From: Pseudidiomarina andamanensis
GTDB taxonomy: Bacteria; Pseudomonadota; Gammaproteobacteria; Enterobacterales; Alteromonadaceae
NCBI RefSeq assembly: GCF_009734345.1
Contig: NZ_CP032551.1
Location: forward strand, 1,710,001-1,742,000
Reading direction: 5' to 3'
Length of the DNA: 32,000 bases
Positions 5,073 to 20,868 of this stretch are shown one piece after another (position 1 is the stretch's first letter; every line of letters begins with the position of its first letter). The notes under the pieces are model-generated. The model was not told where the DNA came from. It searched no databases and saw nothing but the letters and a program-made list of their open reading frames with translations. The position numbers were made by a program, and so were the translations under genes.

Positions 5073-5759
5073 TTAGATTTCTCGAATGGCGTGAGCCCAT
5101 AGCTTGGCCGCTTTCGGCGATGGGTGGAAACCATCCTCTGCCATATAATCGGGCTCAAATGGAAAATTCAATGCGAGATACTCACACTCATTTTGTTCGC
5201 AGTGACGTTGCAATGCGTTATCTAAACGGCGAGCCTGCTGGCCAATAAACCAACGCAGCGGCTGCGGCAATGCAGGAAATTTATGCATGGGTGGCAATGC
5301 CGTAAACACAATACGCTTTGCACCGCGTTGTTCCCGCAAATGCTGTGTGAGCGCTTGTAAATCATGACGCCAATTGATGAGCGAGGTACGCCGAGTCACA
5401 TCATTCACCCCTGCCGAAATTAATACCAAATCAAATGGCTCGGTCTCAGGTTGTTGCTGCGCTAACTTTAAAATACCCGCACAAGTTAAACTTGATTGCG
5501 CCCATAATTGCCAATGCACTTGATACTGTTCTGCCGCTCTGGCAACCAAATGACCACACACCGCTTCGTCTTGTGTAGCACAACCAACGCCTGCAGCAGC
5601 AGAGTCGCCAAGAACAAGTAATCGAAAATGGTTACTTTCACCCTGAACACCCGCACGAGCGCCTGTCGCTTCAGGCAAACGTAAGGTATTTTTGCGTACT
5701 TGCCGTCCTTGCCATATCAGCAAGGGCGCCAGTAGAACTATTGCGAGTTTCTGTAACAT
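5073..5759 (-). CDS. SGNH/GDSL hydrolase family protein with an N-terminal membrane anchor or signal
   Basis: Block I LVLGDSAAAGVG, block III GVND, and a C-terminal D-x-x-H (EDGFHPS). It begins 14 nt after the upstream DsbA-like gene ends. Confidence 0.7.
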   Translation of the reverse strand: MLQKLAIVLLAPLLIWQGRQVRKNTLRLPEATGARAGVQGESNHFRLLVLGDSAAAGVGCATQDEAVCGHLVARAAEQYQVHWQLWAQSSLTCAGILKLAQQQPETEPFDLVLISAGVNDVTRRTSLINWRHDLQALTQHLREQRGAKRIVFTALPPMHKFPALPQPLRWFIGQQARRLDNALQRHCEQNECEYLALNFPFEPDYMAEDGFHPSPKAAKLWAHAIREI

Positions 5760-5772
5760 TGATTACTTCACA

Positions 5773-6501
5773 TTACTGCGCGACGGCTTGTTGAACAACT
5801 TGTTTCAACTCAGCATATTCAACGTAACCTGGAATGGTTTGTCCGCCAACCATAATTGCCGGCGTTCCACGCAATTGAAAATCAGAGAATACCCGATAGT
5901 TACGCTCAATAATGGTTGGCGTCGCCTTCGGGCTATCTAATTGCGAGCGGGTTCCGGTTTTACGCGCAATTTGTTCGAGCGATTTACCGGTATGCAGACC
6001 GTTCTTTTTATAGAGTAGTTCATGCACTTCAGCAAACTGCTCACGCTGATTCTGCCATACATTCAAGGCAAAGTTTGCTGGGTTCAAGTTGCCCCCCTGT
6101 ACACTTTGCTGACGCAGTGGTACCAATACATTAATCACTTTCACTTGTGGAAATTCTTCCACCAACTTCTGCAAGTGCGGCTCTAAACGTTTGCAGTATG
6201 GGCAATCATAATCTGTAAAGACAATAACCGGCACAGAGCCATTCTCAGCGCCAAACCATGGGTGTGCATCATCGTTATCAAGTAGCCACTTACCGTGATC
6301 ACGCTGCGCCTGCTCGGCCGTTTTTTTGCTTGCAATGTATTGCTGCAAGCTATTTAACACACTTGGAATAACTTCTGGGTTTTGCTTCAGTAACTCGTTA
6401 ATTTGCTCAAGTTGCTGGGTTTGATTTCCTGCTTGTTGTGCACTCGCGGCTGCGCTGACAACAAACAATATCGAAAATACTGTGCTTAAAAGGTACTTCA
6501 T
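5773..6501 (-). CDS. Periplasmic DsbA-family thiol:disulfide oxidoreductase (ScsC/DsbG-like)
   Basis: Signal peptide MKYLLSTVFSILFVVSAAASA-QQ, active site CPYC (DYDCPYCKRL), and a cis-Pro loop (GTPAIMV). The start at M17 overlaps the upstream stop. Confidence 0.75.
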   Translation of the reverse strand: MKYLLSTVFSILFVVSAAASAQQAGNQTQQLEQINELLKQNPEVIPSVLNSLQQYIASKKTAEQAQRDHGKWLLDNDDAHPWFGAENGSVPVIVFTDYDCPYCKRLEPHLQKLVEEFPQVKVINVLVPLRQQSVQGGNLNPANFALNVWQNQREQFAEVHELLYKKNGLHTGKSLEQIARKTGTRSQLDSPKATPTIIERNYRVFSDFQLRGTPAIMVGGQTIPGYVEYAELKQVVQQAVAQ

Positions 6502-7007
6502 AACTTCTCCAATTTTTGCATCAATTGCGCCCACTTCAGACGCAACCATAAACCAGCCGGCGTTGATGCACCGGTGGTATACGAAACAATCTCGCCGTCG
6601 GCAATAATCACGACCGTTGGGGTCGCGTTAATTTGCCAACGACGTGCTAATTCACCGGTATTATCGTTTACTGTCGCAAACTGATAATCGTGGTGCCGCA
6701 AATAGCTGTTTACCCGGGCATCATTGCCAGAGCGAATAGCGATACTCATCACCTCATGATCACCGTCAAGCCAGTTGATGGATGGCGAAACCCAATCACA
6801 CACAGGGCACCAGGTTGCCCAAAAGTACAATAAGACGGGTTGTTCATGACTGCGCGCGAGAACATCGTGCTGCTGTTCTTCAATCGTGACGACTGAAAGC
6901 GCATCAATTGGGCCGGATGGCAAACCACGACTGCGCCAGCTATCCACCGCAAAACTTATGGCAATAAAAATGGCAAGATAAACGGCTAATTGCTTAAGGA
7001 ATTTCAT
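6498..7007 (-). CDS. Membrane-anchored TlpA/ResA-like thioredoxin (ScsD-like)
   Basis: One N-terminal TM helix, then a thioredoxin fold with WATWCPVC. It is translationally coupled to both neighbours by 4-nt overlaps. Confidence 0.75.
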   Translation of the reverse strand: MKFLKQLAVYLAIFIAISFAVDSWRSRGLPSGPIDALSVVTIEEQQHDVLARSHEQPVLLYFWATWCPVCDWVSPSINWLDGDHEVMSIAIRSGNDARVNSYLRHHDYQFATVNDNTGELARRWQINATPTVVIIADGEIVSYTTGASTPAGLWLRLKWAQLMQKLEKL

Positions 7008-9076
7008 TGGCGTGCCTGCTCAATTGCTTCAAGTACAGCGTTATCGGTTAGTATCACTGGCAACGCAATACCATTCGGTGCCCCGGGCCCATATACTTGA
7101 TTAAATGGCACGCCGTAACGGTTATAGCTACGCAAATAGTCGGTGATTTGCTCACTTGGCCGCGTCCAGTCGCCCTGCATAAGCACGATATCATCCGAGC
7201 GCAAAGCACTCGCTACCGGCTCTTGTAACAACACACCAATTTTATTCGCTTTGCAGGTCACACACCAATCAGCAGTAACATCCACAAATACCACTTTGCC
7301 TTGGGTAACTGCGTTGGCAATGGCGTTTGGCTGCAGTGGCTGCCAAGCATGTTCCTCTAGCTGCTTCGGATGGCTCGTCCAACTACTGAGTAGCAAGCCA
7401 ACACCGCTCAGCAACACCGTGACAGCGATGGCACCAATCACGCCCGCTTGCCCGAATCGACGGTAGGCTAATACCAGCGCCACTACCACAAATACGGCAA
7501 CAATGAATGCGAACACGCCAGTGCTGACATGGTTGCTTAGCAAGCTAATTAGCCATGCTGTGGTCAGCAACAATAGCAACGCAAATATCCGATTCACCCA
7601 TTTTAACCATGGGCCGGGTTTGGGGAGCTTCATTGCCACGCTTGGCCATACCGCAACGGCTAGCCATGGCAAAGCCATACCCGCGCCTAGGGCCACAAAA
7701 ATAAGCAGAAGCTGTACGTTTGACGCCGCTAAGGCAAACGCGACGGCTGTGCCTAGAAACGGCGCAGTGCAAGGCGTTGCTAGCAAGGTGGCGAACATAC
7801 CTTGAATGAAGTGCCCGAGTGTTGATTGGTCACCGCGGGTAGCTACCCACTGCTGCATACCCTGCGGCAGTTGAATGGTCCATAAACCACTCACGGAGAG
7901 AGCAAACAGGCCAATCACCAATGCCATGCCCCCAATAAAATACGGGTTCTGAAACTGAATGCCCCAACCAATGGCGTGTCCACCTAGCTTCAGTAGCATC
8001 AACATGACTGCCAGAATGACAAACGAGGTAATAATGCCAAGTGCGGAAGCGATAAATTGACGACGTACCTGACCACGCCCACGCTCAGCAATAATTACCG
8101 ACTGTAGTTTTAATCCTAGTACCGGTAACACACATGGCATGATATTTAGGATCAAACCGCCCAGCAACGCAAGTGGCAGCATCATCCACCAGCTTGTTGA
8201 CTCCGCAGGTTGCTGCACGCTACCCGCAATCGCTTCGGCGCTCATTTCTGCACGAATCAGCTTATCCGCTATGGTCACCTGGAGTGTCTCTCCAGTTAAT
8301 TCAGGCTGTTCGAGCCAATGCGAAATTGCAAACCGAGCGGTTAACTCATTGCCTTGTTTCTGCTGCTCTAATAACGCAATAGTGAGATCAGCATAATCGT
8401 CACGCAAACTATCCACAAAAATACGTGGTTGTTGCCATTGCTTAGTATTCGTCACCGTCACCGCTAACTGTTGCTGCGACGCCGACCAAACCATTTCCGA
8501 CACGCTAAGCTGTGGGTGATCACGATGCGGCAACGCACTTTGCGCTTGTTCATAGGCAAATAGCGCATCCATGTCGGCATTCAACTCACTTGGCATAAAG
8601 TTGAGAGCGAGTGGAAAGTCAGAAATTACGCAAATATTGGTACAGCTGGCTAAGGTCAGTAACCCTTGCAAGCTAACTGGCTGTTGCCAATCTGCCACGC
8701 TAATTTGCAGCGGGAAATTGATATCGCCTTGGTAACCTACCGTTTCGATGCCCTGCACGTCAAAACGTTCAGGCACTGGAAAGCGCCAAGAAATATCAGT
8801 GATATTACTGGAATCAGCTTGCCATGCCAGTTGCGGGGGCACGCCACCTTCACCGGGCGTTCGCCAATAGGTTTTCCAATCATCCGCGAGCTTTACCTGC
8901 AATAAGGCAGTTACTTGCTGTTGTTCAGAATTGGTTTTTCCCGGAATTAGCAACCGCACCTGAACTGGTGGGTGCTCTTCAAGTTGAATCCAGTCCGTCG
9001 CAACTTGAGCTTGGGCGCTAGCACTTAGCAGCCACAGCAGCATCGCAGCCAACCAGATTTTTGAAATGTATTTCAT
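7004..9076 (-). CDS. DsbD-family protein-disulfide reductase (ScsB-like): three domains, namely N-terminal periplasmic, CcdA-like TM core and C-terminal thioredoxin
   Basis: 690 aa with a signal peptide. N-domain Cys pair SCTNIC, TM-core cysteines in IMPCVLPV and ATPCTAPF, and a C-terminal thioredoxin WCVTCK. Confidence 0.85.
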   Translation of the reverse strand: MKYISKIWLAAMLLWLLSASAQAQVATDWIQLEEHPPVQVRLLIPGKTNSEQQQVTALLQVKLADDWKTYWRTPGEGGVPPQLAWQADSSNITDISWRFPVPERFDVQGIETVGYQGDINFPLQISVADWQQPVSLQGLLTLASCTNICVISDFPLALNFMPSELNADMDALFAYEQAQSALPHRDHPQLSVSEMVWSASQQQLAVTVTNTKQWQQPRIFVDSLRDDYADLTIALLEQQKQGNELTARFAISHWLEQPELTGETLQVTIADKLIRAEMSAEAIAGSVQQPAESTSWWMMLPLALLGGLILNIMPCVLPVLGLKLQSVIIAERGRGQVRRQFIASALGIITSFVILAVMLMLLKLGGHAIGWGIQFQNPYFIGGMALVIGLFALSVSGLWTIQLPQGMQQWVATRGDQSTLGHFIQGMFATLLATPCTAPFLGTAVAFALAASNVQLLLIFVALGAGMALPWLAVAVWPSVAMKLPKPGPWLKWVNRIFALLLLLTTAWLISLLSNHVSTGVFAFIVAVFVVVALVLAYRRFGQAGVIGAIAVTVLLSGVGLLLSSWTSHPKQLEEHAWQPLQPNAIANAVTQGKVVFVDVTADWCVTCKANKIGVLLQEPVASALRSDDIVLMQGDWTRPSEQITDYLRSYNRYGVPFNQVYGPGAPNGIALPVILTDNAVLEAIEQARQ

Positions 9077-10380: not shown

Positions 10381-10479
10381 CGCACACCTCCAGTTGTATT
10401 GGTACATGTGCGTTCAACTATAGATTAAATTTCACCCATTTTTGTGATCATTGCGAAGTTTTTTGACGTTAATCTGGTA

Positions 10480-11037
10480 TTACCAAAATAGAGCGATAAC
10501 ACCAAGAATAATAAACACCGCCGAGGCGATATAACGAGCCAAATCGAGCGGTAATTTTTGCATTAACTTACCACCGAGTAATACCACCGGCACGTTCGCG
10601 ACCATCATGCCAAGCGTTGTACCTAAAGTTACTGCAACAACACTGGTGTACTGCGCACCAAGCACAATGGTTGCTACCTGCGTTTTGTCACCAATTTCGG
10701 CAATGAAAAACAACACGGTGGTCGCGATGAAAGCGCCGTACTTGCGCACTTCATTATGCTCGTCGTTATCAGGTTTATCAGGAATCAGCACCCACAAGCC
10801 CACCGCAATAAAGCAGGCGGAAACAATATAGGTAGCGATATCCTCGGGTAGCACACCGACAATCCAACTCCCAAACCACGCAGACACAAAATGATTCAGT
10901 ACCGTGGCGACAAAGATACCCGCAATTATCGACCATTTTTGACGATACCGTGCCGCTAAAAATAAGCTTAACAATTGCGTTTTATCGCCGATTTCAGCGA
11001 GGGCAACAGTGAGAGTTGAAGTGAGAAATGCGTCCAA
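10480..11037 (-). CDS. TMEM165/GDT1 (UPF0016) family cation (Mn2+/Ca2+) transporter
   Basis: Two copies of the signature E-x-G-D-K-T (EIGDKTQ) in a duplicated 3-TM topology. The likely start is TTG at 11037 (reads MDAFLTS), 6 nt after AAGGAG. The ORF-track N-terminus (MCLLPIKC...) looks spurious. Confidence 0.8.
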   Translation of the reverse strand: MDAFLTSTLTVALAEIGDKTQLLSLFLAARYRQKWSIIAGIFVATVLNHFVSAWFGSWIVGVLPEDIATYIVSACFIAVGLWVLIPDKPDNDEHNEVRKYGAFIATTVLFFIAEIGDKTQVATIVLGAQYTSVVAVTLGTTLGMMVANVPVVLLGGKLMQKLPLDLARYIASAVFIILGVIALFW

Positions 11038-11136
11038 AATATGCTCCTTGTGGGTCGGCGCGCATTTTATCGGCAATAGACACAATCATCAACAAAGCAA
11101 TCGAACGCCCTTTGCACCACCTTTACAAATGACCGC

Positions 11137-11163
11137 GGAATAACTTGCGTTGTCCCGCCGTTA
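11137..11163 (+). promoter_or_regulatory. ECF-type promoter candidate GGAAT-N17-CGTTA upstream of the secreted repeat protein
   Basis: GGAATaacttgcgttgtcccgcCGTTA. It ends 36 nt before ATG 11199. Both elements match the sites at 14188-14213 (-) and 14222-14248 (+). Confidence 0.5.
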
Positions 11164-11198
11164 TCGAAGTGTCATTACGACATAACGGAGGAATCATT

Positions 11199-11789
11199 AT
11201 GAAAACCGTATTTAACCTAAACGTAATCGCTTTATCACTTGCTTTATCTTCAGGTGCGGCTTTCGCACAAGACGCTTCAGTAAGCGCAAATGCGTCTATT
11301 GCAGCACAGCAATCAACGTCGGTTGAGGCTGAAAACAATCGCGCTGATGCGACTACTCAAGTTTCTGCCAATGCGAATGCAAGTGCCTCGGCACAAACAC
11401 CGCAGCCATCTATGGAAGATGATGCGCCGGCAGAAGGTGAACAACCGGAAGACGAGCAAGCAGAAGAGAGTGCGGAAACCAGCGGTGAGTTGCTGGCTGA
11501 TGCTGAGCAAAACTTATCAGGTCAAGCCGATGCGTCACTTGAAACCGTAAATGGCTTGCAATCTGACGTGGTTAGCACAGTAGATGCAACAGCAAATGTT
11601 GCACAACAAACTGCGGGTGCTGTTACCGCTACAGTGAATGACACTGTGTCGTCAACTGTTTCAGGTGCTGTTGAAACCGCTTCTGAAGCTGCCGTTACTG
11701 ATAGTGTCAATGACACCATTAATAGCTCAGTGGAGTCGACCGTTGATGCTGCGGTACGCAATACCATTCGCGGCAACATTGGTAACTAA
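11199..11789 (+). CDS. Secreted low-complexity protein: Ala/Ser/Gln-rich, then acidic, then a C-terminal [V/I]-x-x-x tetrad-repeat region
   Basis: Signal peptide MKTVFNLNVIALSLALSSGAAFA-QD, with GGAGG 7 nt upstream. The acidic stretch is EDDAPAEGEQPEDEQAEESAE. The C-terminal 55 aa place V/I at every 4th residue. I recognise no family. Confidence 0.6.
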   Translation: MKTVFNLNVIALSLALSSGAAFAQDASVSANASIAAQQSTSVEAENNRADATTQVSANANASASAQTPQPSMEDDAPAEGEQPEDEQAEESAETSGELLADAEQNLSGQADASLETVNGLQSDVVSTVDATANVAQQTAGAVTATVNDTVSSTVSGAVETASEAAVTDSVNDTINSSVESTVDAAVRNTIRGNIGN

Positions 11790-11813
11790 GCACACCGGAT
11801 TGACCCTGAAGAC

Positions 11814-11845
11814 ATGGAGCTAGCCTTGCGCTAGCTCCATATTTT
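11814..11845 (+). terminator. Candidate intrinsic terminator or attenuator between the repeat-protein and barrel genes
   Basis: 11-bp perfect stem ATGGAGCTAGC / GCTAGCTCCAT with a 5-nt loop, followed by ATTTTAAT. The U-tract is short, so termination may be only partial. Confidence 0.5.
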
Positions 11846-11861
11846 AATCGGAGGAATGATC

Positions 11862-12788
11862 ATGAAAACATCAACGTTTATTCTCAGTATCACCACCGCG
11901 AGTTTATTGCCATCTATGTTGCTGAATGTTGCCATTGCCGACGAGCAACGCTTTAGCTGGCAAGGTAAGCTTGAAGCAGGATATTTGTACGATAGTAATG
12001 TGACGGTGCGCGAACTCGATACCACCACGAATGAATCCGATCAGGCCGTGCAACTCAAAGGTAGTGTATCGCTGAAATGGAATCCGTGGGCCAACTTAAA
12101 CTTGAATACCGGCGTTAACCACAGTGAAACGCTGTATCAATCGCAAGATGAATTTGATTTGGCCATTACCACCATTCATGGCGATTTGTCATACGATTTT
12201 AGCGAAATCACCGTCGGCGTGAGTCGTCACGATGCTACGGCAGATTTAGCTGACCAAGCTTTTATGGATTACCAACAAGATGCGCTTTATCTTGCGCGGT
12301 TGTGGGGAACGCGTTGGTACACACGCGTTGCCGTGCAAAACATCGAAAAATCGTTCAACCAAGTGCCTGATCGTAACGCGACTGCTGAGGCTATTGTCGG
12401 CGACGTGTATTGGTTCACGCCCTCGGCAAAGAGTTTCGTCATGCTCGGCTATACCTACCATGATGAAACCGCAACGAATCCTGAGCTAAGTTACCAAGAG
12501 CCGCAGTACCGCTTAACCTGGCAGTCTCAGACCTCAGGCTGGGGCGGCGAACATACTTGGCAAATTCATCTGCAATGGCAGCAACGTGATTACCTGGCAC
12601 CAATGCAAATTCTCGATGGTTCGACACGCGAAGAACAACGTTTGACCGCACGTGCACAATGGGATATTCCATTGACTTCAGGTTTTAAGTTTACGCCATC
12701 TATTGAGTATGTGGATAACCAATCTAACTTTGCCGATGTCGACTATGATGAGACGCTGGCCGGCATTCGGTTGAGCTACACCTTCTAA
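11862..12788 (+). CDS. Putative outer-membrane beta-barrel protein
   Basis: Signal peptide MKTSTFILSITTASLLPSMLLNVAIA-DE, alternating amphipathic strands, many aromatic girdle residues, and an OMP-type C-terminus (IRLSYTF). I chose ATG 11862 because ATG 11856 sits directly on the GGAGG. Confidence 0.55.
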   Translation: MKTSTFILSITTASLLPSMLLNVAIADEQRFSWQGKLEAGYLYDSNVTVRELDTTTNESDQAVQLKGSVSLKWNPWANLNLNTGVNHSETLYQSQDEFDLAITTIHGDLSYDFSEITVGVSRHDATADLADQAFMDYQQDALYLARLWGTRWYTRVAVQNIEKSFNQVPDRNATAEAIVGDVYWFTPSAKSFVMLGYTYHDETATNPELSYQEPQYRLTWQSQTSGWGGEHTWQIHLQWQQRDYLAPMQILDGSTREEQRLTARAQWDIPLTSGFKFTPSIEYVDNQSNFADVDYDETLAGIRLSYTF

Positions 12789-12797
12789 TTTGGTTTT

Positions 12798-14147
12798 TTA
12801 TTGCTCAGTTAAAAGGCCGAATCCGAAAATTGAATCACGACCTTTTTCACCAAGATCGATCACGCGCTGCTGAAGTAACTTTCGTACTTCAGTAGCGCTG
12901 TGCTGTGGATTCTCATGCCATACACACGCAGCCGCCGCAGTAACAACTGGTGCAGCCATCGAAGTACCAGTTTCATAGCCAACTTGGCCATCGCGTCGTG
13001 CCGTTTTAACCTGCACGCCACGAGCAGAAAACTCTACGAAATTGCCTTGATTGGCCCACCGATAAATACCGCGATTCGTATCAACTGCCGTCACTGCAAT
13101 CACCTCGTTGTAAGCTGCTGGGTAATTAGCAGGGGCCGCTGGCCCATCATTACCGGCTGCTGCAACAAGTAGAATATTTTGTTCAGAAAGACGCATCACA
13201 GCTTGCTCTAACAGTGCATTGCCTGGCCCAGTTAACGACATATTGATCACGCGAACCTGTTGTTCCGCTAGCCAGTTCAATGCTTCTAACAAAGGTAGCA
13301 ACGCAGCACCTTGCTGCATGGCATTATGGCGATGAAAAATGGCTGCGCTGTAGAGTTTAGCTTGAGGAGTTAGGCTCACATAATCGTCATGCGAGCCAAG
13401 CAAAAGGCCAGCTACAGCGGTACCATGCGCCGTAGGCTGCGCCACACCGTCCGCTAAAAAGCCTTTCTGCACAATCGGTTTATTAGCGAAGACTGGGTGC
13501 GCAACGTCAACCGCGGTATCAATCATACCAATGGTAACCGGAGCCTCGCACCAGCGCTGCTGAGCAGCTTGTGTGGAGCCTTTGACAGCTGCCATGCTTT
13601 GCGTGTCATAAACAAAATGACGCACTAAGGATGCCGCTGCAGCTTTAGGTAGCTCACGACGCAACAGTGCTTCATCATTAAATTCAGCTGGCACTTTAAA
13701 TCGCAATACCGTCATACCAACCGCTCCCAGTTGCTGCTTGGCAAGTAACTGTGCGCCCATACCTCGCAACACGTCCTCGGCTTCAGTTGAGGCAACCACC
13801 AGCCATTCGCGCTCAAGCACACGCGTGCCGTCATCGAGTGTCACCTCGGCAAATAACTCTTGATTGTTCGCGCCAAGTACCGGCAACCGCTTTAAGTTGT
13901 CATTGGTGACAGTCACAACCCCTTGATGGAGGTTTTGCACCGCCTCAGGTACACGCTGATGCAAATTTTCTTGGACGCGTTGTTGTACTTGATCGCGCAC
14001 TCGGTCAGTGGTGCGCTGAACGTCTTGAAGAACAGGCTGCACTGGATTATCAAGCACTTGCGTTAACCCTGTTGTTGGTAAAATCAACGTTAACAAGGTT
14101 AAGGTAAGGCATCGCTGTGCGAAATTACGTGCTAGTTTAATAGTCAT
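12798..14147 (-). CDS. S8 family (subtilisin-like) serine peptidase with a long N-terminal pro/repeat region
   Basis: Catalytic triad contexts: D (GMIDTAVDVAHP), H (HGTAVAGLL) and S (GTSMAAPVVTAAAA). There is an N-terminal signal-like segment. Residues about 31-78 show a [V/L]-x-x-x periodicity. Confidence 0.85.
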   Translation of the reverse strand: MTIKLARNFAQRCLTLTLLTLILPTTGLTQVLDNPVQPVLQDVQRTTDRVRDQVQQRVQENLHQRVPEAVQNLHQGVVTVTNDNLKRLPVLGANNQELFAEVTLDDGTRVLEREWLVVASTEAEDVLRGMGAQLLAKQQLGAVGMTVLRFKVPAEFNDEALLRRELPKAAAASLVRHFVYDTQSMAAVKGSTQAAQQRWCEAPVTIGMIDTAVDVAHPVFANKPIVQKGFLADGVAQPTAHGTAVAGLLLGSHDDYVSLTPQAKLYSAAIFHRHNAMQQGAALLPLLEALNWLAEQQVRVINMSLTGPGNALLEQAVMRLSEQNILLVAAAGNDGPAAPANYPAAYNEVIAVTAVDTNRGIYRWANQGNFVEFSARGVQVKTARRDGQVGYETGTSMAAPVVTAAAACVWHENPQHSATEVRKLLQQRVIDLGEKGRDSIFGFGLLTEQ

Positions 14148-14187
14148 TATGTTGTACCTCGTGCTGCGTGACAGGTGTGTACACCAT

Positions 14188-14213
14188 TAACGGTTTCTAG
14201 CAAAAAAAATTCC
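14188..14213 (-). promoter_or_regulatory. ECF-type promoter candidate GGAAT-N16-CGTTA facing the S8 peptidase gene
   Basis: The minus strand reads GGAATtttttttgctagaaacCGTTA. It ends about 40 nt before the peptidase ATG (14147). Confidence 0.45.
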
Positions 14214-14221
14214 ATATTGAT

Positions 14222-14248
14222 GGAATAAATATGCGACATAGCTCGTTA
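14222..14248 (+). promoter_or_regulatory. ECF-type (probably autoregulated) promoter candidate GGAAT-N17-CGTTA upstream of the sigma factor
   Basis: GGAATaaatatgcgacatagctCGTTA. It ends 57 nt before ATG 14305. Confidence 0.5.
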
Positions 14249-14304
14249 CCAAATTAACACAGAATGAGACGAATACTTTCATTTCAGTCAACTTGGATAG
14301 AACG

Positions 14305-14841
14305 ATGACAACTGCAAACTTGAAACAACAAATTAGCACAATACTGCCAGCCTTGCGGCGCTTTGCCTTATCGCTATGTGGCAATGTTGCAGACGCCGAT
14401 GACTTATTGCAGACCACGGTCGAGCGCCTGCTAACACGTTCAGTGCCAGACAATGCTGAGCTTATCGCTTGGGCATTTAAAGTATGCCGTAATGCGTGGA
14501 TTGATGAGCACCGGGCGCGTAAAGTTCGTGAAAATGCTGTACACAACGAACAGTTGCAAGAGTCCACCAGCGCCGACGATGTGCAGCGTATTCATAATCA
14601 ACTTGAATTAAATCAAGTGGACGCGGCAATCGAACAACTCCCGAACGAGCAGCGTGAAGCAATTGCCTTAGTTGCTATACAAGGTCTAAGTTATCGCGAA
14701 GCTGCTGAAATTCTTGAGGTGCCGACTGGTACCATTATGAGCCGATTGGCTCGCGCTCGCGCTAAATTAGCTGAATTATTGCAACACACACAAATCGCCG
14801 ACAGCGCCAGCAATCAAGGAGGGGCTCCTTATGTTCATTAA
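14305..14841 (+). CDS. ECF-subfamily RNA polymerase sigma-70 factor
   Basis: Region 2 (LRRFALSLCGNVADADDLLQTTVERLL ... WAFKVCRNAWIDEHR) and region 4 (LPNEQREAIALVAIQGLSYREAAEILEVPTGTIMSRLARAR). I chose ATG 14305; the ORF-track start at 14293 is TTG. Confidence 0.85.
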   Translation: MTTANLKQQISTILPALRRFALSLCGNVADADDLLQTTVERLLTRSVPDNAELIAWAFKVCRNAWIDEHRARKVRENAVHNEQLQESTSADDVQRIHNQLELNQVDAAIEQLPNEQREAIALVAIQGLSYREAAEILEVPTGTIMSRLARARAKLAELLQHTQIADSASNQGGAPYVH

Positions 14842-15565
14842 TGACGAAATGCTATCAGCATTCTTAGACAATGAACTCGACGCAGCTGAAACCGAGGTTG
14901 TTCGTGCACAGCTCGAACATGACGAAAAGCTCGCTGAACGCCTAGCGGCACTCGCCATGGCAGATTTACAAGTTCGCGAGCGGGTTGATGCGCTGAATTC
15001 ACAAGCTATACCAGCGCGAGTTTACAAGCTGCTTGAAGAAACCGATGAGCCAACCAATGTGGTGTCACTGAGCCGCTGGAAGATGTTAAAGAACACCGTT
15101 CAAGAGCATGTTGCGGTTGCGGCTAGCGTTGCGTTAATGATCGGTTTTGGGTTGGGCTCGTGGACATTGGCACCAACAACTGGCACCGCCGACACCGCGA
15201 TTGCCGTGGCGCTAGAAACACAGCCAAGTGGTAAACCATATGCGCTTGCTAACAATGCGACGTTTACCGGCCAGTTAACTTTTGTAGATAACCAAGGGGA
15301 TTATTGTCGCCAGTATGAACTAACCCAACAGCAAACGACTACCACGGCTATTCAGTGCCGCCGTAACGGTGCTTGGCAGCAGGTAGCGAGTCTGGAAGTT
15401 GCAACTCAATCACAGTCAGGAGGCTATCAGACGGCGACTGACAAACACATGCTGGACCCAGTTCTGGACCAGATGATGCAATCGGCGCCGTTAACGCCAG
15501 CGCAAGAGCAAGAAACACTTAACGCTGCTTGGAATTCGACTTCGAAAAACAACAAGCAGCATTAA
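14831..15565 (+). CDS. Single-pass anti-sigma factor (cognate to the upstream ECF sigma)
   Basis: It overlaps the sigma stop by 11 nt, with AGGAGG upstream. The N-terminal anti-sigma-like helix is DEMLSAFLDNELDAAE, the TM segment is VAVAASVALMIGFGLGSWTLA, and the periplasmic domain has two Cys (DYCRQY ... IQCRRNGAWQ). Confidence 0.65.
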   Translation: MFINDEMLSAFLDNELDAAETEVVRAQLEHDEKLAERLAALAMADLQVRERVDALNSQAIPARVYKLLEETDEPTNVVSLSRWKMLKNTVQEHVAVAASVALMIGFGLGSWTLAPTTGTADTAIAVALETQPSGKPYALANNATFTGQLTFVDNQGDYCRQYELTQQQTTTTAIQCRRNGAWQQVASLEVATQSQSGGYQTATDKHMLDPVLDQMMQSAPLTPAQEQETLNAAWNSTSKNNKQH

Positions 15566-15583
15566 AACCAAAGGAGAACGACC

Positions 15584-16105
15584 ATGAAAACACTGAATAT
15601 TATGTTGTTCACATTACTAAGCCTAGTACTTGTTGGTTGTAGCTCACAGCCTGATTATCGCAAAGCGGAAGGCTCCGGCTATGGCTACCAAGAAACTAAA
15701 ATTTCGGATACGCAGTACCGCGTGAGTTTTAAGGCGCGTGGCTCTGACAAAACCAAAGCGATGGATTATGCACTGCTTCGTGCCGCTGAAGTAACCTTGG
15801 AAAATGGCTACGACTGGTTTGTGGTCACACACCGTGAAACGCTCATTGACCGCGAGCGTGTGAGCCCCGAATCGAGCATTGGTTATACCAGCTCTCACGA
15901 TATGGTGACGCGCTGCGGTTTAATCTCGTGCACGACCACACATTATCCACGCGATACGTATAGCGCTGGTATTCATATTGGTGGTCGCGAATCGAGTGAC
16001 ATTGAAAGTATTGTTGAAATCAAACTGGGTAAAGGAGCACGTCCAGATACTGATTACAGTTTCAATGCGCTTGAAGTCAAAGAAAACCTCAGCCCCGAAA
16101 ATTAA
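15584..16105 (+). CDS. Lipoprotein of unknown function; last gene of the sigma operon
   Basis: Lipobox LVLVG-C at residues 15-19 and AAGGAG upstream. It resembles the small YGYxE...Y.V.F.G...DYALLRAAE-type lipoproteins (CC0125/CC1285-like), from memory only. Confidence 0.6.
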   Translation: MKTLNIMLFTLLSLVLVGCSSQPDYRKAEGSGYGYQETKISDTQYRVSFKARGSDKTKAMDYALLRAAEVTLENGYDWFVVTHRETLIDRERVSPESSIGYTSSHDMVTRCGLISCTTTHYPRDTYSAGIHIGGRESSDIESIVEIKLGKGARPDTDYSFNALEVKENLSPEN

Positions 16106-16196
16106 TCCGATCTACCCCTTGAGAGGGATCTCGAGGGTACTCCTTCAGCGCAAGGTTAATTTGTAGCCGGACTGCGTATACTGCATGCATTGATAT

Positions 16197-16210
16197 TTGA
16201 TTTTGATCTG
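16197..16210 (+). promoter_or_regulatory. FNR-box-like site (TTGAT-TTTG-ATCTG, 8/10) immediately upstream of fnr
   Basis: It matches TTGAT-N4-ATCAA at 8 of 10 positions and lies 16 nt before ATG 16226. Its position fits negative autoregulation, as is known for E. coli fnr. Confidence 0.35.
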
Positions 16211-16225
16211 CATCAGGAAAACGTT

Positions 16226-16930
16226 ATGGCGAATATGACTTCACACATTCATTGTCAAAATTGCAGCATGGCAGCGCTATGTTTACCGTATCAACTGGAT
16301 CAAGATGGTATGGCTCGCTTGGATACAATCATTCAGCGCCATAAACCGATTCACAAGCGCGACGTGTTAGTCAATGCGGGCACACCGCTGAAGTTTTTGT
16401 ACGCGGTTCGCAGCGGTTCACTTAAGTCATATACCATTGATGACAATGGCATTGAGCAAATTATCGACTTTCATCTGCCGGGTGATTTGATTGGCTTTGA
16501 TGCACTTGCCAACAGCGAACATCGGAGTTACACCCAAGCACTTGAAACCAGCATGTTGTGCGAAATTCCGGTGAGTTCATTAGATGATCTTGCGGAACAA
16601 ATGCCAGGTTTACGTCGCCAGATGTGGCGCTTGATGAGCGGTGAAATTTTTACTAGCAAGCAGTTACTCGGCACACTCAATAACCGCTCAGCACAACAAC
16701 GCTTAGCTCACTTTTTAGTTACGCTTGCCGACCGCTTTAAAGAGCGTGGCCTATCAAGTCGCTCATTCCGATTGACCATGACTCGGGCGGACATTGGCAA
16801 TTACCTTGGCTTGTCGGTTGAAACCATCAGCCGCATTTTATCTGCGTTGCAATTAGAAGGGGTAATTGACGTACAGAACAAACTAGTTAACGTGATTGAA
16901 CCAACCCGCTTGCGCGAGTTGGCTCAGTAA
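16226..16930 (+). CDS. fnr: FNR, the oxygen-sensing [4Fe-4S] Crp/Fnr-family transcription factor
   Basis: Near-collinear with E. coli FNR. Shared features: the N-terminal Cys cluster HCQNCSMAALCLP, the fourth Cys in ETSMLCEIP, and the recognition helix VETISRIL. I chose the start at MANMTSH, which follows AGGAAA. Confidence 0.9.
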   Translation: MANMTSHIHCQNCSMAALCLPYQLDQDGMARLDTIIQRHKPIHKRDVLVNAGTPLKFLYAVRSGSLKSYTIDDNGIEQIIDFHLPGDLIGFDALANSEHRSYTQALETSMLCEIPVSSLDDLAEQMPGLRRQMWRLMSGEIFTSKQLLGTLNNRSAQQRLAHFLVTLADRFKERGLSSRSFRLTMTRADIGNYLGLSVETISRILSALQLEGVIDVQNKLVNVIEPTRLRELAQ

Positions 16931-16940
16931 GTCTTCTAGC

Positions 16941-17480
16941 CTATTGGCAACCGCCACAGCAGTGGCCGTTGCCATGGTGGCCTTTCCCTGCTTCTTCAGC
17001 TTTCTTAAACAACACGCTATTTTCGATGGCGATGTGTTGGTGTAGGTCGCTGATAAATTCATTAATGCCTTCATACAACATGATCCAGCTGCCACAAGCA
17101 CCACGTGGTGCGTTACATTGGTTCGTTAACTCAAGCAGTTGGGCAATCATTTGCTCATGTTGATCATGCTCTTCTTCCATCACTGCAATTGGGCCTTGTG
17201 GATAAATACCGCCGGCAAGCATTGGGAACAGAATTTGCTCTTCTTTCATCATGTGGCTTTCAAGCTCTTGGTACATCGCTTGTAAGTGTTCGGCTAAGCC
17301 AGCTGGGCAATCGCTGTGATCGTTGTGAACATCTTCAATTTTGCGCGCCAAGTTAATTAAGTCAGGCAATTGCGCACGATGTTTTTCATGAAAATGCTCC
17401 ACCATGAATTCGGTTAGCGCTTTCTTTGGCATGGCTTGGTATACGGCAAGTGCCTCACTATGAACGGTTTGGGTCGTCAT
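16941..17480 (-). CDS. dnrN: Hemerythrin-domain di-iron protein of the DnrN/YtfE (RIC) family; it lacks the ScdA_N domain and has a C-terminal His/Cys-rich tail
   Basis: It aligns with the C-terminal two thirds of E. coli YtfE (HFHEKHRAQLPDLI, SHMMKEEQILFPML, MEEEHDQH, HIAIENSVLF). The start has an AGGAG 8 nt upstream, so the missing N-domain looks genuine. The tail reads GKGHHGNGHCCGGCQ. Confidence 0.75.
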   Translation of the reverse strand: MTTQTVHSEALAVYQAMPKKALTEFMVEHFHEKHRAQLPDLINLARKIEDVHNDHSDCPAGLAEHLQAMYQELESHMMKEEQILFPMLAGGIYPQGPIAVMEEEHDQHEQMIAQLLELTNQCNAPRGACGSWIMLYEGINEFISDLHQHIAIENSVLFKKAEEAGKGHHGNGHCCGGCQ

Positions 17481-17548
17481 AAAACTTCTCCTAGCTAATA
17501 TTTAGTCGCTGCAAGCAGCGCAATTGAGCGTATTTACCCCTTAACTGG

Positions 17549-17564
17549 TGCAATTTCGATGCCA
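17549..17564 (-). promoter_or_regulatory. sigma54 (-24/-12) promoter for dnrN
   Basis: The minus strand reads TGGCAT-CGAAA-TTGCA, with GG and GC 12 nt apart. It lies about 70 nt upstream of ATG 17480. Confidence 0.6.
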
Positions 17565-17605
17565 AAACTACCCACTTTGATTTATATCGAGTTTTTTTCT
17601 GCAAT

Positions 17606-17662
17606 GGTAAATTAAACCCAATGAAATTCGGGTCATTCAGGCCTAAAAGGGTTGTTTTTACC
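17606..17662 (-). promoter_or_regulatory. Three NorR enhancer boxes (GGT-N7-ACC) upstream of the dnrN sigma54 promoter
   Basis: GGTaaattaaACC at 17606-17618, GGTcattcagGCC at 17631-17643 (5/6), and GGTtgtttttACC at 17650-17662. Confidence 0.6.
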
Positions 17663-19219
17663 ATGCATGATGTCTCCTTACTTGAAACACTAATTGCCGA
17701 TTTAGTGACTGATTTACCAGCGGTCATTCGCTTGGAAAAAGTCGTAAAAACACTGCGCACGCATTTTCATTGTGGTGCCGTCGTGATACTCAAACACGAC
17801 CAAGATATGTTGCGTCCTATTGCCAGTATTGGCTTGGCTCGCGAAGCGCTTGGCCGTCGTTTTCTAGTGCAACAACACCCGCGCCTTGAGCGTATTCTAA
17901 GTAGTCGTGAAACCGTTCGGTTCGAACCGGATAGCAGTTTGCCTGATCCATACGATGGGTTAATTGAAGACAGCCCAGATGGTCACCTTGCCGTGCATGA
18001 TTGCATGGGCATCAGCCTCTATATTGAAGGCAAGTGCTGGGGCGTACTCACACTGGATGCACTCACACCTGGTACCTTTGATAACAGCACCATGCAGGCA
18101 TTACAACGCGCGAGCTTATTAGTAGAAGCCGCCATTCGTATGGGCTTAATTGAGCAAAACATCCGAGCGCTACGTAACAATCGTCGCGACAGTGAATACT
18201 CACTAACAAGTAACGGCACAGATAGCCAAGAAATTATTGGTCGCAGCGCCGCGTTGATGACGGTACTGCAAGAATTAGAAGTGGTTGCTGGCTCTGATTT
18301 GCCGGTATTGCTGCTCGGCGAAACCGGTGTCGGTAAAGAGTTATTTGCGCGACAGTTACACCGTTTGTCACCTCGAAACCATAAACCACTGGTGTACGTG
18401 AACTGCGCCGCACTACCGGAAACTTTAGCCGAGAGTGAATTGTTTGGACATACTCGCGGCGCCTATTCTGGAGCAACCGGCGAGCGCGCTGGGCGCTTTG
18501 ACAGCGCCGATGGCGGTACCATTTTCTTAGACGAGGTTGGTGAACTACCATTAGCCATACAAGCCAAGTTATTACGTGTGCTACAAAACGGTGAAATTCA
18601 GCGTCTTGGTAGTGATAGCTCACACAAGGTCAATGTTCGAATTGTGGCGGCGACCAATCGTGACTTAAAGCAACAAATTAAGTCTGGCGACTTCCGTGCA
18701 GATTTATACCATCGTTTGTCGGTATATCCGCTACCGATTCCGCCACTGCGCGACCGCCAAGATGATATTTCGGTGCTGGCTGGTCACTTCCTTGAGCTCA
18801 ACCGTGCACGCTTAGGCGTTCGCGCACTGCGTTTGTCGCCAACCGCAGAGCAAGCATTGCAGCGTTATGATTGGCCGGGTAACGTGCGTGAGCTAGAGCA
18901 CACTATCAGTCGTGCCGCTATCAAGGCATTAAGCTTGGGTGCGCGACGTGATGACATTGTGAGTATTGATGCCGAGCTTCTCGATTTACCTACCGCGGTG
19001 GTTCAAGCCGTAGGCGCTCAAGATCTGCCACTACCTAAAGCCAATGGCACCTTAGATGTCGGTTCGCTAAATTTAAAGAATGCCGTACAAACTGTTCAGC
19101 GTGAACTGATTCAGCAAGCGCTTGAGCATACCGACTATAAATGGACGCAAGCAGCTCGTATACTAGACCTTGATCCGAGCAACTTACACAAGCTAGCCAG
19201 CCGCTTAGGGCTGAAATAA
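17663..19219 (+). CDS. norR: NorR, the NO-responsive sigma54-dependent transcriptional activator (GAF, AAA+ and HTH domains)
   Basis: Collinear with E. coli NorR. GAF region: LPDPYDGLI. AAA+ region: GETGVGKE, ESELFGH, GAYSGA, and RADLYHRLSVYPL. C-terminal HTH. I chose ATG 17663 (MHDVSLLETL) because the ORF-track start at 17621 would place the NorR boxes inside the coding sequence. Confidence 0.85.
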   Translation: MHDVSLLETLIADLVTDLPAVIRLEKVVKTLRTHFHCGAVVILKHDQDMLRPIASIGLAREALGRRFLVQQHPRLERILSSRETVRFEPDSSLPDPYDGLIEDSPDGHLAVHDCMGISLYIEGKCWGVLTLDALTPGTFDNSTMQALQRASLLVEAAIRMGLIEQNIRALRNNRRDSEYSLTSNGTDSQEIIGRSAALMTVLQELEVVAGSDLPVLLLGETGVGKELFARQLHRLSPRNHKPLVYVNCAALPETLAESELFGHTRGAYSGATGERAGRFDSADGGTIFLDEVGELPLAIQAKLLRVLQNGEIQRLGSDSSHKVNVRIVAATNRDLKQQIKSGDFRADLYHRLSVYPLPIPPLRDRQDDISVLAGHFLELNRARLGVRALRLSPTAEQALQRYDWPGNVRELEHTISRAAIKALSLGARRDDIVSIDAELLDLPTAVVQAVGAQDLPLPKANGTLDVGSLNLKNAVQTVQRELIQQALEHTDYKWTQAARILDLDPSNLHKLASRLGLK

Positions 19220-19267
19220 GCTCAGTTCTCGGTAAGAGATTCAGAACCATAACAGGGTCGGTATTTT

Positions 19268-19663
19268 ATGAGGGTCATTTTGCGCATTTTGTTGTGGCGC
19301 ACCATTGCAATTTTGGCGTTGCTACTCGGAGTCATTGGGCTATTGCTACCGATTATGCCGACCGTACCGTTTTTGCTTGTTGCCGCATGGGCAGGCGGCA
19401 AAGGGTGGCCGGTACTTGAACAAAAGCTATTGGCACACCCTAAATACGGGCCACAAATTATTGCTTGGCGTAAATACGGTGTGGTCAAACGTCAACCCAA
19501 AGTGATTGCGTCAGTCATGATGGGAGGTAGTGCGATAATGCTTGGCTTTAGCCCGGCACCGTTTGCCGTTAAATTCGCTGTGATTGGAATTATGGCAACT
19601 GTTGCGGTATGGCTCTGGTTGCGTCCTGAAGCAGAGCCAACCACCGCAACTAAATCAGATTAG
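19268..19663 (+). CDS. ybaN: YbaN (DUF454) family inner-membrane protein
   Basis: Typical N-terminus LLGVIGLLLPIMPTVPFLLVAAW and a length of about 130 aa. It starts 48 nt downstream of norR. Confidence 0.7.
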   Translation: MRVILRILLWRTIAILALLLGVIGLLLPIMPTVPFLLVAAWAGGKGWPVLEQKLLAHPKYGPQIIAWRKYGVVKRQPKVIASVMMGGSAIMLGFSPAPFAVKFAVIGIMATVAVWLWLRPEAEPTTATKSD

Positions 19664-20868
19664 CCTGGACGCCCATCTGGGCGTGGTGTTGTTAGAATAG
19701 GCAAATACACCACTACGTACATGCTATAAGCAATTATCCATGCCGCCGCTGCAAAGACTAACCATGACATCGCCAAATCAGGCACCAACCAAGTCAGCAC
19801 AACACGCGATAATGCCGCTGAAATCACCAGTAAAAACGCCAGTGACATAATCGGCTTAGGCTGCAATGGACGACCACTGTGGCCCAGAGAAACGCGCGCA
19901 ATCATCGCCAAAATCATGTTCCCCATTGCGCCAGCGGTTAGTGCATGTAGCGCGATGGAATTGGTTATACTAGTCACCCCCAACTCACGTAACGCAAACA
20001 GCGCAAGGCCAACAGGAATAAACCAATAAGCAATATGCAACGACCATAGCAATGGTACGCGCAGGGTTATCCAAATGCGCCAGCGGAAGCAACGAATACC
20101 TAGTGCAACAGCGCTAATGCCGCACAAAGCAGCCATCACAGCGTCTGGTAATTGCGCACTAAACAAAGTGATGTTGAGGATAAAAATCAGCCATAAACTG
20201 CCAAGGCCAATGCGATCGAGCCACTCAATCGGTTGCGCTTTTTGCGTCATGGTGCCGTTAGCGGTAAACATCGGTAGCACCCGCCCACCAACAATGGCCA
20301 TCAATAAGGTGACCAGCCAAACGGCGTTTTGACTACCTAACTGCTGCAGGTCGAACCGATCACTGACTAACCCGTAGTGCATGAGGGCATTACAAAATGT
20401 GAGTAAGAACAGCACAGGCACAAAGAACAAGTTACGCTGTTGCTTGACTTGAATTAGCGGCACTGCGAGTAAAACCGCCGCCAATGGCAAGAATAACAAG
20501 TCGACTGCTGCAACCAGCCATACCGGTAGGCCGGCACCAAACAACATCAACAAGCGACCCAGTAACCAAACGGTGGTCAAAATACCTAGAGCTCGGCCAT
20601 GTGTGGCGCGCAGCCCAGTCCAGTTTTGCACTGCGGTAAGTAAGAAACCAACGACAATGGCGGCGACAAAACCAAAAATCATTTCATGGGCATGCCAAAA
20701 CATCACTTGCCCATAAACTGGCAACGAGATTTGCCCGCCAAGCACTAGTATCCACAGCAACATCGCAATGGCACTGAAACTGGCACCGAACAAAAACATC
20801 GGGCGAAATGCTTGGCGCAACAATGGCCACATCTTTTGTTCAACCTGTAAATCGGTAATTTGTAACAT
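19660..20868 (-). CDS. nnrS: NnrS family haem/copper membrane protein (NO-stress associated)
   Basis: About 12 TM segments. N-terminal FRPMFLFGA and WHAHEMIFGF motifs typical of NnrS. GGGAGAG lies upstream. It starts only 34 nt after the ubiV stop. Confidence 0.85.
   Translation of the reverse strand: MLQITDLQVEQKMWPLLRQAFRPMFLFGASFSAIAMLLWILVLGGQISLPVYGQVMFWHAHEMIFGFVAAIVVGFLLTAVQNWTGLRATHGRALGILTTVWLLGRLLMLFGAGLPVWLVAAVDLLFLPLAAVLLAVPLIQVKQQRNLFFVPVLFLLTFCNALMHYGLVSDRFDLQQLGSQNAVWLVTLLMAIVGGRVLPMFTANGTMTQKAQPIEWLDRIGLGSLWLIFILNITLFSAQLPDAVMAALCGISAVALGIRCFRWRIWITLRVPLLWSLHIAYWFIPVGLALFALRELGVTSITNSIALHALTAGAMGNMILAMIARVSLGHSGRPLQPKPIMSLAFLLVISAALSRVVLTWLVPDLAMSWLVFAAAAWIIAYSMYVVVYLPILTTPRPDGRPG

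Follow-up and report, generated by a model that had tools for sequence, protein, structure and literature searches.

Putative ECF26-type (RpoE6-like) envelope signalling module joining a secreted repeat protein, an outer-membrane barrel and a subtilase in Gammaproteobacteria

Introduction

Why would a secreted repeat protein, a small outer-membrane (OM) beta-barrel, a subtilase and a lipoprotein share a promoter motif with a sigma factor of the extracytoplasmic function (ECF) type and its anti-sigma factor? The question arises from a 32,000-nucleotide stretch of the Pseudidiomarina andamanensis genome (contig NZ_CP032551.1, positions 1,710,001 to 1,742,000), here called the window, in which six such genes lie together. 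A first, sequence-only reading had proposed that the sigma factor autoregulates and drives the other genes as a small regulon. The comparative data strongly support this proposal: the motif recurs at three positions of a six-gene block, and the block stays linked across many genera. By homology and promoter type, the regulatory core belongs to a known kind of ECF system, and the block as a whole is probably best explained as an ECF26-type (RpoE6-like) envelope signalling module for export and processing. The promoters and genes are listed below, rep denoting the secreted acidic repeat protein and S8 the subtilase.

11137..11163, plus strand: ECF-type promoter of the rep-barrel operon (exact match, GGAATAA-N-CGTTA)
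11199..11789, plus strand: rep, secreted acidic repeat protein (from translation, signal peptide and isoelectric point; mature protein pI 4.05, charge -26)
11862..12788, plus strand: 14-stranded OM beta-barrel, barrel-only (Pfam SlipAM at 33.5 bits, cut-off 22; the match spans positions 1-288 of the 288-position model)
12798..14147, minus strand: exported S8 subtilase (Pfam Peptidase_S8, PF00082, 131.6 bits, residues 204-444)
14188..14213, minus strand: ECF-type promoter of the S8 gene (exact match, GGAATTTTTTTT-N-CGTTA)
14222..14248, plus strand: ECF-type, putatively autoregulatory promoter of the sigma/anti-sigma/lipoprotein operon (exact match, GGAATAA-N-CGTTA)
14305..14841, plus strand: ECF sigma factor, RpoE6-like (ECF26 by homology and promoter; Sigma70_r2, Sigma70_r4_2 and PhyR_sigma2 hits)
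14831..15565, plus strand: single-pass membrane anti-sigma factor (zf-HC2 hit at residues 6-30; transmembrane segment 94-112; Cys159/Cys176)
15584..16105, plus strand: CC0125/CC1285-family lipoprotein (NCBIfam NF047637, 153.8 bits, cut-off 40)

Three predicted promoters in the window

A scan of both strands of the window returned three matches to GGAAT-N16/17-CGTTA, at 11137-11163 (+), 14188-14213 (-) and 14222-14248 (+). These are precisely the sites that had been picked out by eye, and the accompanying impression that the window holds no further copy was borne out. All three are intergenic and point at a gene, namely rep (ATG at 11199), S8 (start at 14147, minus strand) and the sigma gene (ATG at 14305). 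How surprising is this? Dinucleotide shuffling predicts 0.10 +/- 0.30 copies, and none of 100 shuffles contained three. The relaxed pattern GGAAY-N15-18-CGT occurs six times against 6.4 expected; it is not enriched, and the signal therefore resides in the full GGAAT...CGTTA form. The -35 elements of the divergent S8 and sigma promoters (14188-14248) stand back-to-back with a gap of 8 nt (AAAAAAAATTCC-atattgat-GGAATAAA). A sigma-70 promoter scan showed no enrichment (3 found, 6.4 expected), and Rfam returned no known RNA family for 10400-16400 at E values up to 0.1.

Conservation of the genes and of their promoters

Do the six genes stay together elsewhere? In orthologous loci whose barrels are 73%, 54% and 51% identical to that of the window, all six are kept in unchanged order, and in the 51% pair the flanking genes differ; the six-gene block therefore moves as a unit. 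Searching with the lipoprotein family brought up Alteromonas, Microbulbifer and Arsukibacterium loci that hold these six genes, and a search begun with barrel homologues at about 20% identity to the window barrel arrived at the same layout. A genome-wide lipoprotein scan gave 386 hits, for which 80 loci were fetched and annotated with our own open reading frame (ORF) caller and iterated hidden Markov models (HMMs). The full arrangement is present in Pseudidiomarina, Alteromonas, Marisediminitalea, Aestuariibacter, Paraglaciecola, Microbulbifer, Marinimicrobium, Colwellia, Pseudoalteromonas, Oleispira, Oleiphilaceae and Cellvibrio. Linkage is kept even where the order is rearranged: Woeseiaceae place the rep-barrel pair after the lipoprotein gene, and in Simiduia litorea the pair lies 3 kb away and inverted. 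In essentially every locus rep and the barrel gene are adjacent and co-oriented, and in rearranged modules they relocate jointly. Neighbourhood conservation, which had been suggested as a check on the regulon, thus holds despite changed flanks and rearrangements.

The motif behaves in the same way. We counted GGAAN-N15-18-CGTN between -260 and +120 of each ORF start over all independent loci, about 80 from 15 genera or more. The motif stands before rep in 45 of 48 loci, with a spacer of 16-17 nt, the sigma gene in 65 of 69 (at least three of the four misses lie outside the module) and S8 in 48 of 60. The barrel gene has an upstream motif of its own in none of 57 loci, and the anti-sigma gene in four of 67. 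Within 1.24 Mb of loci we counted 172 matches to the strict form GGAAT[AT][AT]-N13-16-CGT[TC], where shuffles give 20.4 +/- 3.9; 141 of these matches lie directly 5' of a sigma, rep or S8 gene, and many of the remainder precede unannotated rep genes or S8 genes cut by contig ends. Among 130 distinct module promoters, whose consensus is GGAAT(A/T)(A/T)...CGT(T/C), only one has a GGAAT-to-CGT spacer other than 16 or 17 nt, namely 15 nt. Promoters of the sigma gene and of rep read GGAATAAA, with AAA after GGAAT, while the S8 promoter nearly always has a T-run there. The gap between the divergent -35 elements is 8-9 nt in 27 of 43 loci. When Pseudidiomarina loci whose proteins are about 50% identical are aligned, the GGAATAA and CGTTA columns are invariant and the spacers have diverged. 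All three positions carry the motif in Pseudidiomarina, Alteromonas, Paraglaciecola, Microbulbifer, Marinimicrobium, Oleispira, Cellvibrio, Woeseiaceae and other groups, and it accompanies the module into new genomic contexts. As judged from sequence, the evidence for the regulon is about as strong as comparative data allow.

Some features of these loci are more restricted. In four Pseudidiomarina loci CTTTACA (window 11120-11126) is invariant about 10 nt 5' of the rep -35 element, where it could be an UP-like element or the site of a second regulator. Microbulbifer carries a fourth ECF-type motif directly 5' of the lipoprotein gene (L006 7929-7953; also L052, L054 and L070), which suggests that the lipoprotein may be expressed separately there. 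In an Oleispira metagenome-assembled genome (L079 378-3117) a second S8/sigma/anti-sigma core adjoins a complete six-gene module, a tandem duplicated core.

A regulatory core of the RpoE6 type

What kind of sigma factor would read these promoters? The predicted protein of 178 aa consists of sigma2 and sigma4 only (Pfam Sigma70_r2 at residues 13-73, Sigma70_r4_2 at 103-155) and scores 90.7 bits against the TIGR02937 sigma70-ECF model, whose cut-off is 42.9. It is 40% identical over 176 residues (E = 1e-39) to RpoE6 encoded on pSymA of Sinorhizobium meliloti. Its closest solved structures are 5uxx, which we take to be the EcfG-NepR complex, and Mycobacterium tuberculosis SigH/SigE. For SigH/SigE the promoters have been defined experimentally as GGAAT/GGAAC...(C)GTT (PMC10012870). 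The anti-sigma ORF overlaps the sigma stop codon, an arrangement consistent with translational coupling. The periplasmic domain of the anti-sigma factor contains two cysteines (Cys159/Cys176), and the protein aligns end-to-end with EcfR6, the cysteine pair included; a PDB sequence search gave no match for it.

RpoE6 belongs to ECF26, a group defined by Staron et al. in 2009, which had more than 100 members at its first definition and was termed 'poorly characterized' (PMC3511301). Its cross-species consensus is GGAATA at -35 and GT at -10, and a divergent serine protease and a lipoprotein count among its 'widely conserved' arrangements (PMC6180224, Lang et al. 2018). Microarrays after RpoE6 overexpression in S. 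meliloti showed induction of the divergent protease gene SMa0142 and of the neighbouring SMa0139, SMa0146 and SMa0148; the study did not find a physiological role (PMC6180224). Only the sulfite-responsive members of ECF26 are understood, the RpoE6 type being without an assigned signal or output (PMC6180224, PMC3511301). On pSymA we find the motif before SMa0142, within rpoE6 before ecfR6, as Lang et al. had proposed (PMC6180224), and before two genes downstream. The Agrobacterium pAt locus has the same gene set and likewise carries the motif.

The hallmarks of the group recur in the gammaproteobacterial loci. Every locus that extends far enough has a divergent S8 gene, the lipoprotein gene is linked, and the sigma and rep promoters have GGAATA at -35 and a -10 element with (C)GT. 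Because these hallmarks and the homology to RpoE6/EcfR6 agree, the regulatory core is of a known kind, an RpoE6-type system of the poorly characterised ECF26 group, an assignment made by homology and promoter rather than by group HMMs. The experiment on the homologue, in which genes bearing the same motif were induced (PMC6180224), supports by analogy a sigma-dependent induction of the divergent protease and its neighbours here. The earlier statement that no characterised system has this composition needs to be corrected. Rep and the barrel form a pair that appears undescribed both as effectors and in its coupling to an ECF sigma factor. The statement does not stand for the sigma/anti-sigma pair, divergent protease, lipoprotein and GGAATA promoter, which are published ECF26 hallmarks with a function left undefined.

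How far does the likeness to RpoE6-EcfR6 extend? Besides the sigma factor and the collinear anti-sigma factor with its cysteine pair, the two share the divergent S8 gene, GGAATA-N-CGT promoters, a small, local and apparently autoregulated regulon, and an undefined function. The pSymA and pAt loci differ in that barrel, CC0125 lipoprotein and period-4 rep are all missing, an (SSN)n protein and a DUF6065 protein being encoded instead. What the gammaproteobacterial version has in addition, as fixed parts, is the rep-hairpin-barrel operon and the lipoprotein. The pSymA regulon also contains a tiny Ser-rich repeat protein that is secreted, so that a low-complexity, Ser-rich secreted protein seems to be an output common to the alpha- and gammaproteobacterial versions. 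In both alphaproteobacterial loci a motif stands before the gene for this (SSN)n-repeat protein (L091 10384-10773 (+); L089 3582-3935 (-)), and another stands before the DUF6065 gene.

Escherichia coli sigmaE with RseA-RseB and DegS offers a looser parallel: a membrane anti-sigma factor, a co-transcribed accessory on the periplasmic or OM side, an autoregulated operon, envelope targets and a serine protease. It differs in ECF group and promoter, in the family of its protease (S1/PDZ, against S8 here) and in scope, the local regulon here appearing tiny and clustered. Cleavage of the anti-sigma factor, the task of DegS, is only a candidate function of S8.

The rep-barrel operon

What does the third promoter drive? 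The composition of rep is rich in A, S, T, V, N and Q, with a C-terminal period-4 repeat of [ST]-[VI]-x-x and a conserved tail, ...I-x-G-x-[IL]-G-x. It has no Pfam, NCBIfam or PDB match, the hits of a PDB sequence search being insignificant (E of 0.12 or worse). The periodicity, which had been noticed by eye, is real: in the last 64 residues hydrophobicity peaks at a period of 3.95 with a power of 110.6, far above the shuffled maximum of 38.2 +/- 10.8. In 17 rep sequences from many genera the spectrum peaks at 4.0 and/or at the harmonic 2.0, with almost nothing at 3.6, and exceeds shuffles by about 5-10 standard deviations in most and by about 3-4 in the two weakest. By these spectra the C-terminal repeat, whose composition is beta-prone, is predicted to alternate in beta fashion and not to form an amphipathic helix. 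Orthologues were found in all module loci, copies missed by the HMM in Pseudoalteromonas and Colwellia being confirmed by eye. All have a signal peptide, an acidic, aromatic-poor and Cys-poor body rich in the same residues (A/S/T/V/N/Q) and with a variable acidic spacer, a C-terminal [ST]-[VI]-x-x stretch of 60-100 residues, and a tail of the form ...I-x-G-x-[IL]-G-x or ...DLxLG[LW].

Two non-coding elements flank the rep gene:

11164..11198, plus strand: conserved rep 5' leader with a TGTC/GACA mini hairpin and ribosome-binding site (invariant alignment columns)
11814..11840, plus strand: GC-rich stem-loop, attenuator- or terminator-like, in the rep-barrel gap (11-bp stem followed by a ATTTTAAT tail)

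The leader consensus, CGTTAtCtcagTGtca, holds across genera, and the leader may act in translational control or as a discriminator/start region. Around it (window 11159-11198), Pseudidiomarina conserves CGTTAtC-N3-(G/A)TGTCattacGACAtAACGGAGGAAT, and Alteromonas and Arsukibacterium do so in part. The stem-loop that separates rep from the barrel gene had also been noted by eye, and its 11-bp stem and tail are as described. Behind the rep stop codon nearly all loci have a strong GC-rich hairpin, its sequence unrelated from locus to locus. Because this hairpin is conserved and the barrel gene has no motif of its own, the arrangement implies abundant rep and a limited read-through into the barrel gene, a predicted stoichiometry like that of cargo and transporter. 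In hlyCABD and hasADE the abundant secreted product likewise comes first, followed by a stem-loop and then by an OM or export component expressed through read-through. Those are type I systems with ATP-binding cassette transporters, while a small barrel is the one dedicated component here and the inner membrane would be crossed by Sec.

The barrel model (AlphaFold2, 22-sequence alignment) has a mean pLDDT of 90.8, a pTM of 0.82 and 14 strands by DSSP. A word-indexed homology search with this protein reached only 13-22 proteins; an exhaustive profile search revealed a family of 901 representative clusters, the best 150 of which are all 271-355 aa long. A PDB sequence search with the barrel profile gave no match. 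Among the orthologues, that of L006 has no Pfam hit and that of L005 matches BBP2_2 only; the BBP2_2 hits that we inspected span the C-terminal strands only. The Pfam searches and structure models proposed earlier for rep, the barrel and the lipoprotein (models for the last two) gave a single Pfam match, SlipAM for the barrel, the lipoprotein matching NCBIfam NF047637.

Is the barrel then a Slam? The Slam or type XI secretion family (DUF560, PF04575) includes Neisseria Slam1/2, Xenorhabdus NilB/HrpB and Acinetobacter HsmA. Slams have a 14-stranded barrel and translocate lipoproteins, and all Slam cargo share an 8-stranded barrel domain (PMC5449769). Hooda et al. found an N-terminal TPR domain in all Slams and no DUF560-only proteins (PMC5449769). 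The DUF560 groups outside cluster 1, the environmental ones, contain no characterised proteins (PMC8406197), and marine cluster 3 rarely occurs with canonical cargo (PMC12282271). The window barrel resembles this family in its 14 predicted strands, its full-length, if marginal, SlipAM match and the adjoining gene for a Sec-dependent candidate cargo, rep. It differs in the absence of a TPR domain, in a neighbour without a recognisable 8-stranded barrel (TbpBBD) domain, in a family of which only about half reaches the Pfam model, and in its ECF sigma regulation. Since the HMM match is marginal, the TPR domain is absent and no cargo domain is recognisable, with strand number alone in agreement, the predicted protein is more aptly assigned to a barrel-only, Slam-like family than called a Slam. 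This qualifies the earlier view of a dedicated-looking barrel in an uncharacterised system, as a match to the Slam/DUF560 family, if a marginal one, does exist. A literature search turned up nothing linking DUF560 with an ECF sigma factor.

The subtilase and the lipoprotein

S8 has an intact triad, D210 (DTA), H241 (HGT) and S396 (GTSMA), together with N333 and a signal peptide. Its best PDB relatives are subtilisins, at about 96 bits, and its catalytic domain is 44% identical to that of SMa0142. The N-terminal region of about 200 aa has no Pfam match, and a PADLOC defence scan gave only generic subtilase/IetS hits. We rejected the idea that a basic period-4 Val repeat in this region pairs with the acidic rep repeat, the S8 repeat being unconserved beyond close relatives.

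In every complete module locus examined (loci on short contigs being cut off) the lipoprotein gene is third in the sigma operon; because it sits there, we favour a role in signalling rather than as cargo. The protein has an LVGC lipobox with Cys19, Ser at +2 and a conserved CGLxxC. Its AlphaFold2 model (pLDDT 75.8) combines a confident alpha/beta core and a long helix with two disordered loops around CGLxxC, and it has no PDB neighbour by fold or profile, the profile hits being insignificant (E of 0.12 or worse). A 'lipoprotein 15' motif has been described in the protein encoded 5' of rpoE1 (PMC3511301). The window protein has no Pfam match and hence none to that motif; it belongs to the CC0125 family and is encoded downstream. 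Literature searches for CC0125/CC1285 yielded unrelated clinical papers only, and none was found combining ECF, subtilisin, lipoprotein and Alteromonas. Stand-alone CC0125-family paralogues occur in many genomes with no sigma, protease or barrel gene nearby (L026, L031, L038, L045, L048-L051 and others), and some Pseudidiomarina genomes have two adjacent copies of the family (L032, L049).

A model for the module

How might these parts work together? At rest, the single-pass anti-sigma factor would retain the sigma factor at the inner membrane. A periplasmic or OM cue would probably be sensed through the two-cysteine domain of the anti-sigma factor and the co-transcribed OM lipoprotein, and the sigma factor would be released. 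With RNA polymerase it would then fire GGAAT(A/T)-N16/17-CGT(T/C) promoters, namely that of its own operon (positive autoregulation), that of S8 and that of the rep-barrel operon. The hairpin after rep would let only some transcripts pass into the barrel gene, giving much rep and little barrel. After crossing the inner membrane by Sec, rep would use its beta-type C-terminal repeat either to thread through the dedicated 14-stranded Slam-like barrel or to anchor in it, and its acidic Ser/Thr-rich part would end outside the cell. The subtilase would process or release rep and may also cleave the anti-sigma factor. For the signal, for the export or anchoring of rep through the barrel and for the protease substrate, this is what we infer. 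We suggest tentatively, as a possibility well short of probable, that rep and the barrel form a minimal OM export system that has so far gone unrecognised. In it a TPR-less, 14-stranded Slam-like barrel would carry no globular barrel-domain cargo but an acidic one with a long amphipathic beta-type period-4 repeat, which would enter or pass through the barrel and build a surface coat or fibre, the production being switched on by an ECF26 sigma factor and the cargo trimmed by the subtilase.

Alternative explanations

Several observations weigh against this picture, in which the link to Slam and type XI secretion is weak. In the model the barrel starts directly behind the signal peptide, at about residue 31, and there is no periplasmic or TPR domain. 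Foldseek against the PDB returns generic barrels only, with no Slam entry and with the 14-stranded OmpG and CymA at the top by TM-score. Of 51 sampled barrel relatives, 27 match SlipAM, 31 BBP2_2 and 17 OMP_b-brl. No 8-stranded barrel domain of the known type XI cargo was recognisable in rep by Pfam, NCBIfam or PDB searches. Relatives in Alphaproteobacteria encode the protease together with a Ser-rich secreted protein and have no barrel, so the ECF/protease pair is not intrinsically barrel-dependent. Each of these points except the first is equally an argument for the main rival, that the regulon is real and the barrel a plain diffusion channel (a BBP2/OmpG-like porin), with rep remaining in the periplasm, where it might for example serve the protease as a substrate, bind the anti-sigma factor or lipoprotein as a ligand, or act as a polyanionic buffer or decoy, rep and barrel being merely co-expressed stress effectors. 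We regard this as a serious possibility, though still on the doubtful side. It leaves the joint movement of the adjacent, co-oriented rep and barrel genes and the cargo-like stoichiometry of the conserved attenuator to be accounted for, and its BBP2_2 support comes, where inspected, from C-terminal strands, whereas SlipAM covers the whole window barrel. Could the barrel instead flip the CC0125-family lipoprotein to the surface, with rep as an accessory or periplasmic protein? Slam family members do translocate lipoproteins (PMC5449769), Ser at +2 predicts OM sorting, and the lipoprotein is always in the module. We nevertheless find this improbable: the modelled alpha/beta fold with its long helix is unlike the 8-stranded barrel of Slam cargo (PMC5449769), the lipoprotein gene lies in the sigma operon and not beside the barrel gene, stand-alone paralogues exist without a barrel, and in Simiduia curdlanivorans (L008) the lipoprotein gene is retained and the fetched flanks contain no barrel gene.

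The control of the module raises two further alternatives. The subtilase might be mainly a regulatory (site-1) protease that cuts the periplasmic domain of the anti-sigma factor and so creates a positive-feedback switch, with rep as activator or competing substrate. This is compatible with the export-and-processing module rather than exclusive of it, and we consider it rather unlikely as the main role, given that the known site-1 proteases of ECF systems, DegS and PrsW, belong to other families and that an effector role fits S8 equally well. What speaks for it is that S8 is the gene most tightly and universally coupled to the sigma/anti-sigma pair, divergent from it with back-to-back -35 elements, and is kept in alphaproteobacterial loci that lack barrel and lipoprotein; ECF26 activation, moreover, is still described as hypothetical (PMC6180224). 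In Pseudidiomarina, sigma dependence is deduced from homology and conservation, and this too counts against our picture, as does the lack of a recognisable GGAAN-N15-18-CGTN before S8 in Pseudoalteromonas and several Paraglaciecola loci (L061-L066, L072-L077). In those loci the sigma gene, and rep where checked, keep the motif; either the S8 site has diverged or S8 regulation has been rewired. Might the three copies in the window then be a chance or compositional effect, or be read by a sigma factor encoded elsewhere? The GGAA/CGT architecture is common to ECF12, 14, 15 and 26, so that cross-talk is conceivable (PMC10012870, PMC6180224), and the relaxed pattern shows no enrichment. Against three copies where 0.10 are expected, at positions conserved across genera, always beside this sigma gene and travelling with the module, such an explanation is very improbable.

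Significance

Why does this version of ECF26 merit attention? It is widespread in Gammaproteobacteria (386 genome hits for the lipoprotein, 901 clusters for the barrel) and forms a clean, self-contained regulon of three predicted promoters, and its effectors, rep, the small barrel and S8, are easy to assay. It ties an ECF sigma factor to a DUF560-like barrel, and the function and cargo of 'environmental' DUF560-related proteins are an acknowledged gap (PMC8406197, PMC12282271). If rep and the barrel do form a minimal export system, type XI-like secretion would extend to a new cargo class and to stress-coupled regulation, and the RpoE6 type of ECF26 would gain its first physiological output. 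The promoters, compact and apparently orthogonal, may also serve as ECF-based genetic switches.

Flanking genes

The module of the window is bordered by genes of redox and nitrosative stress. On one side lies a DsbD-thioredoxin-DsbA-like cluster (5073-9076 (-)) and on the other FNR, a hemerythrin, a NorR-like GAF/sigma54 activator and NnrS (16226-20868). These flanks are present in L001 and L004 and absent from L002; the redox and nitrosative-stress genes are therefore not part of the module.

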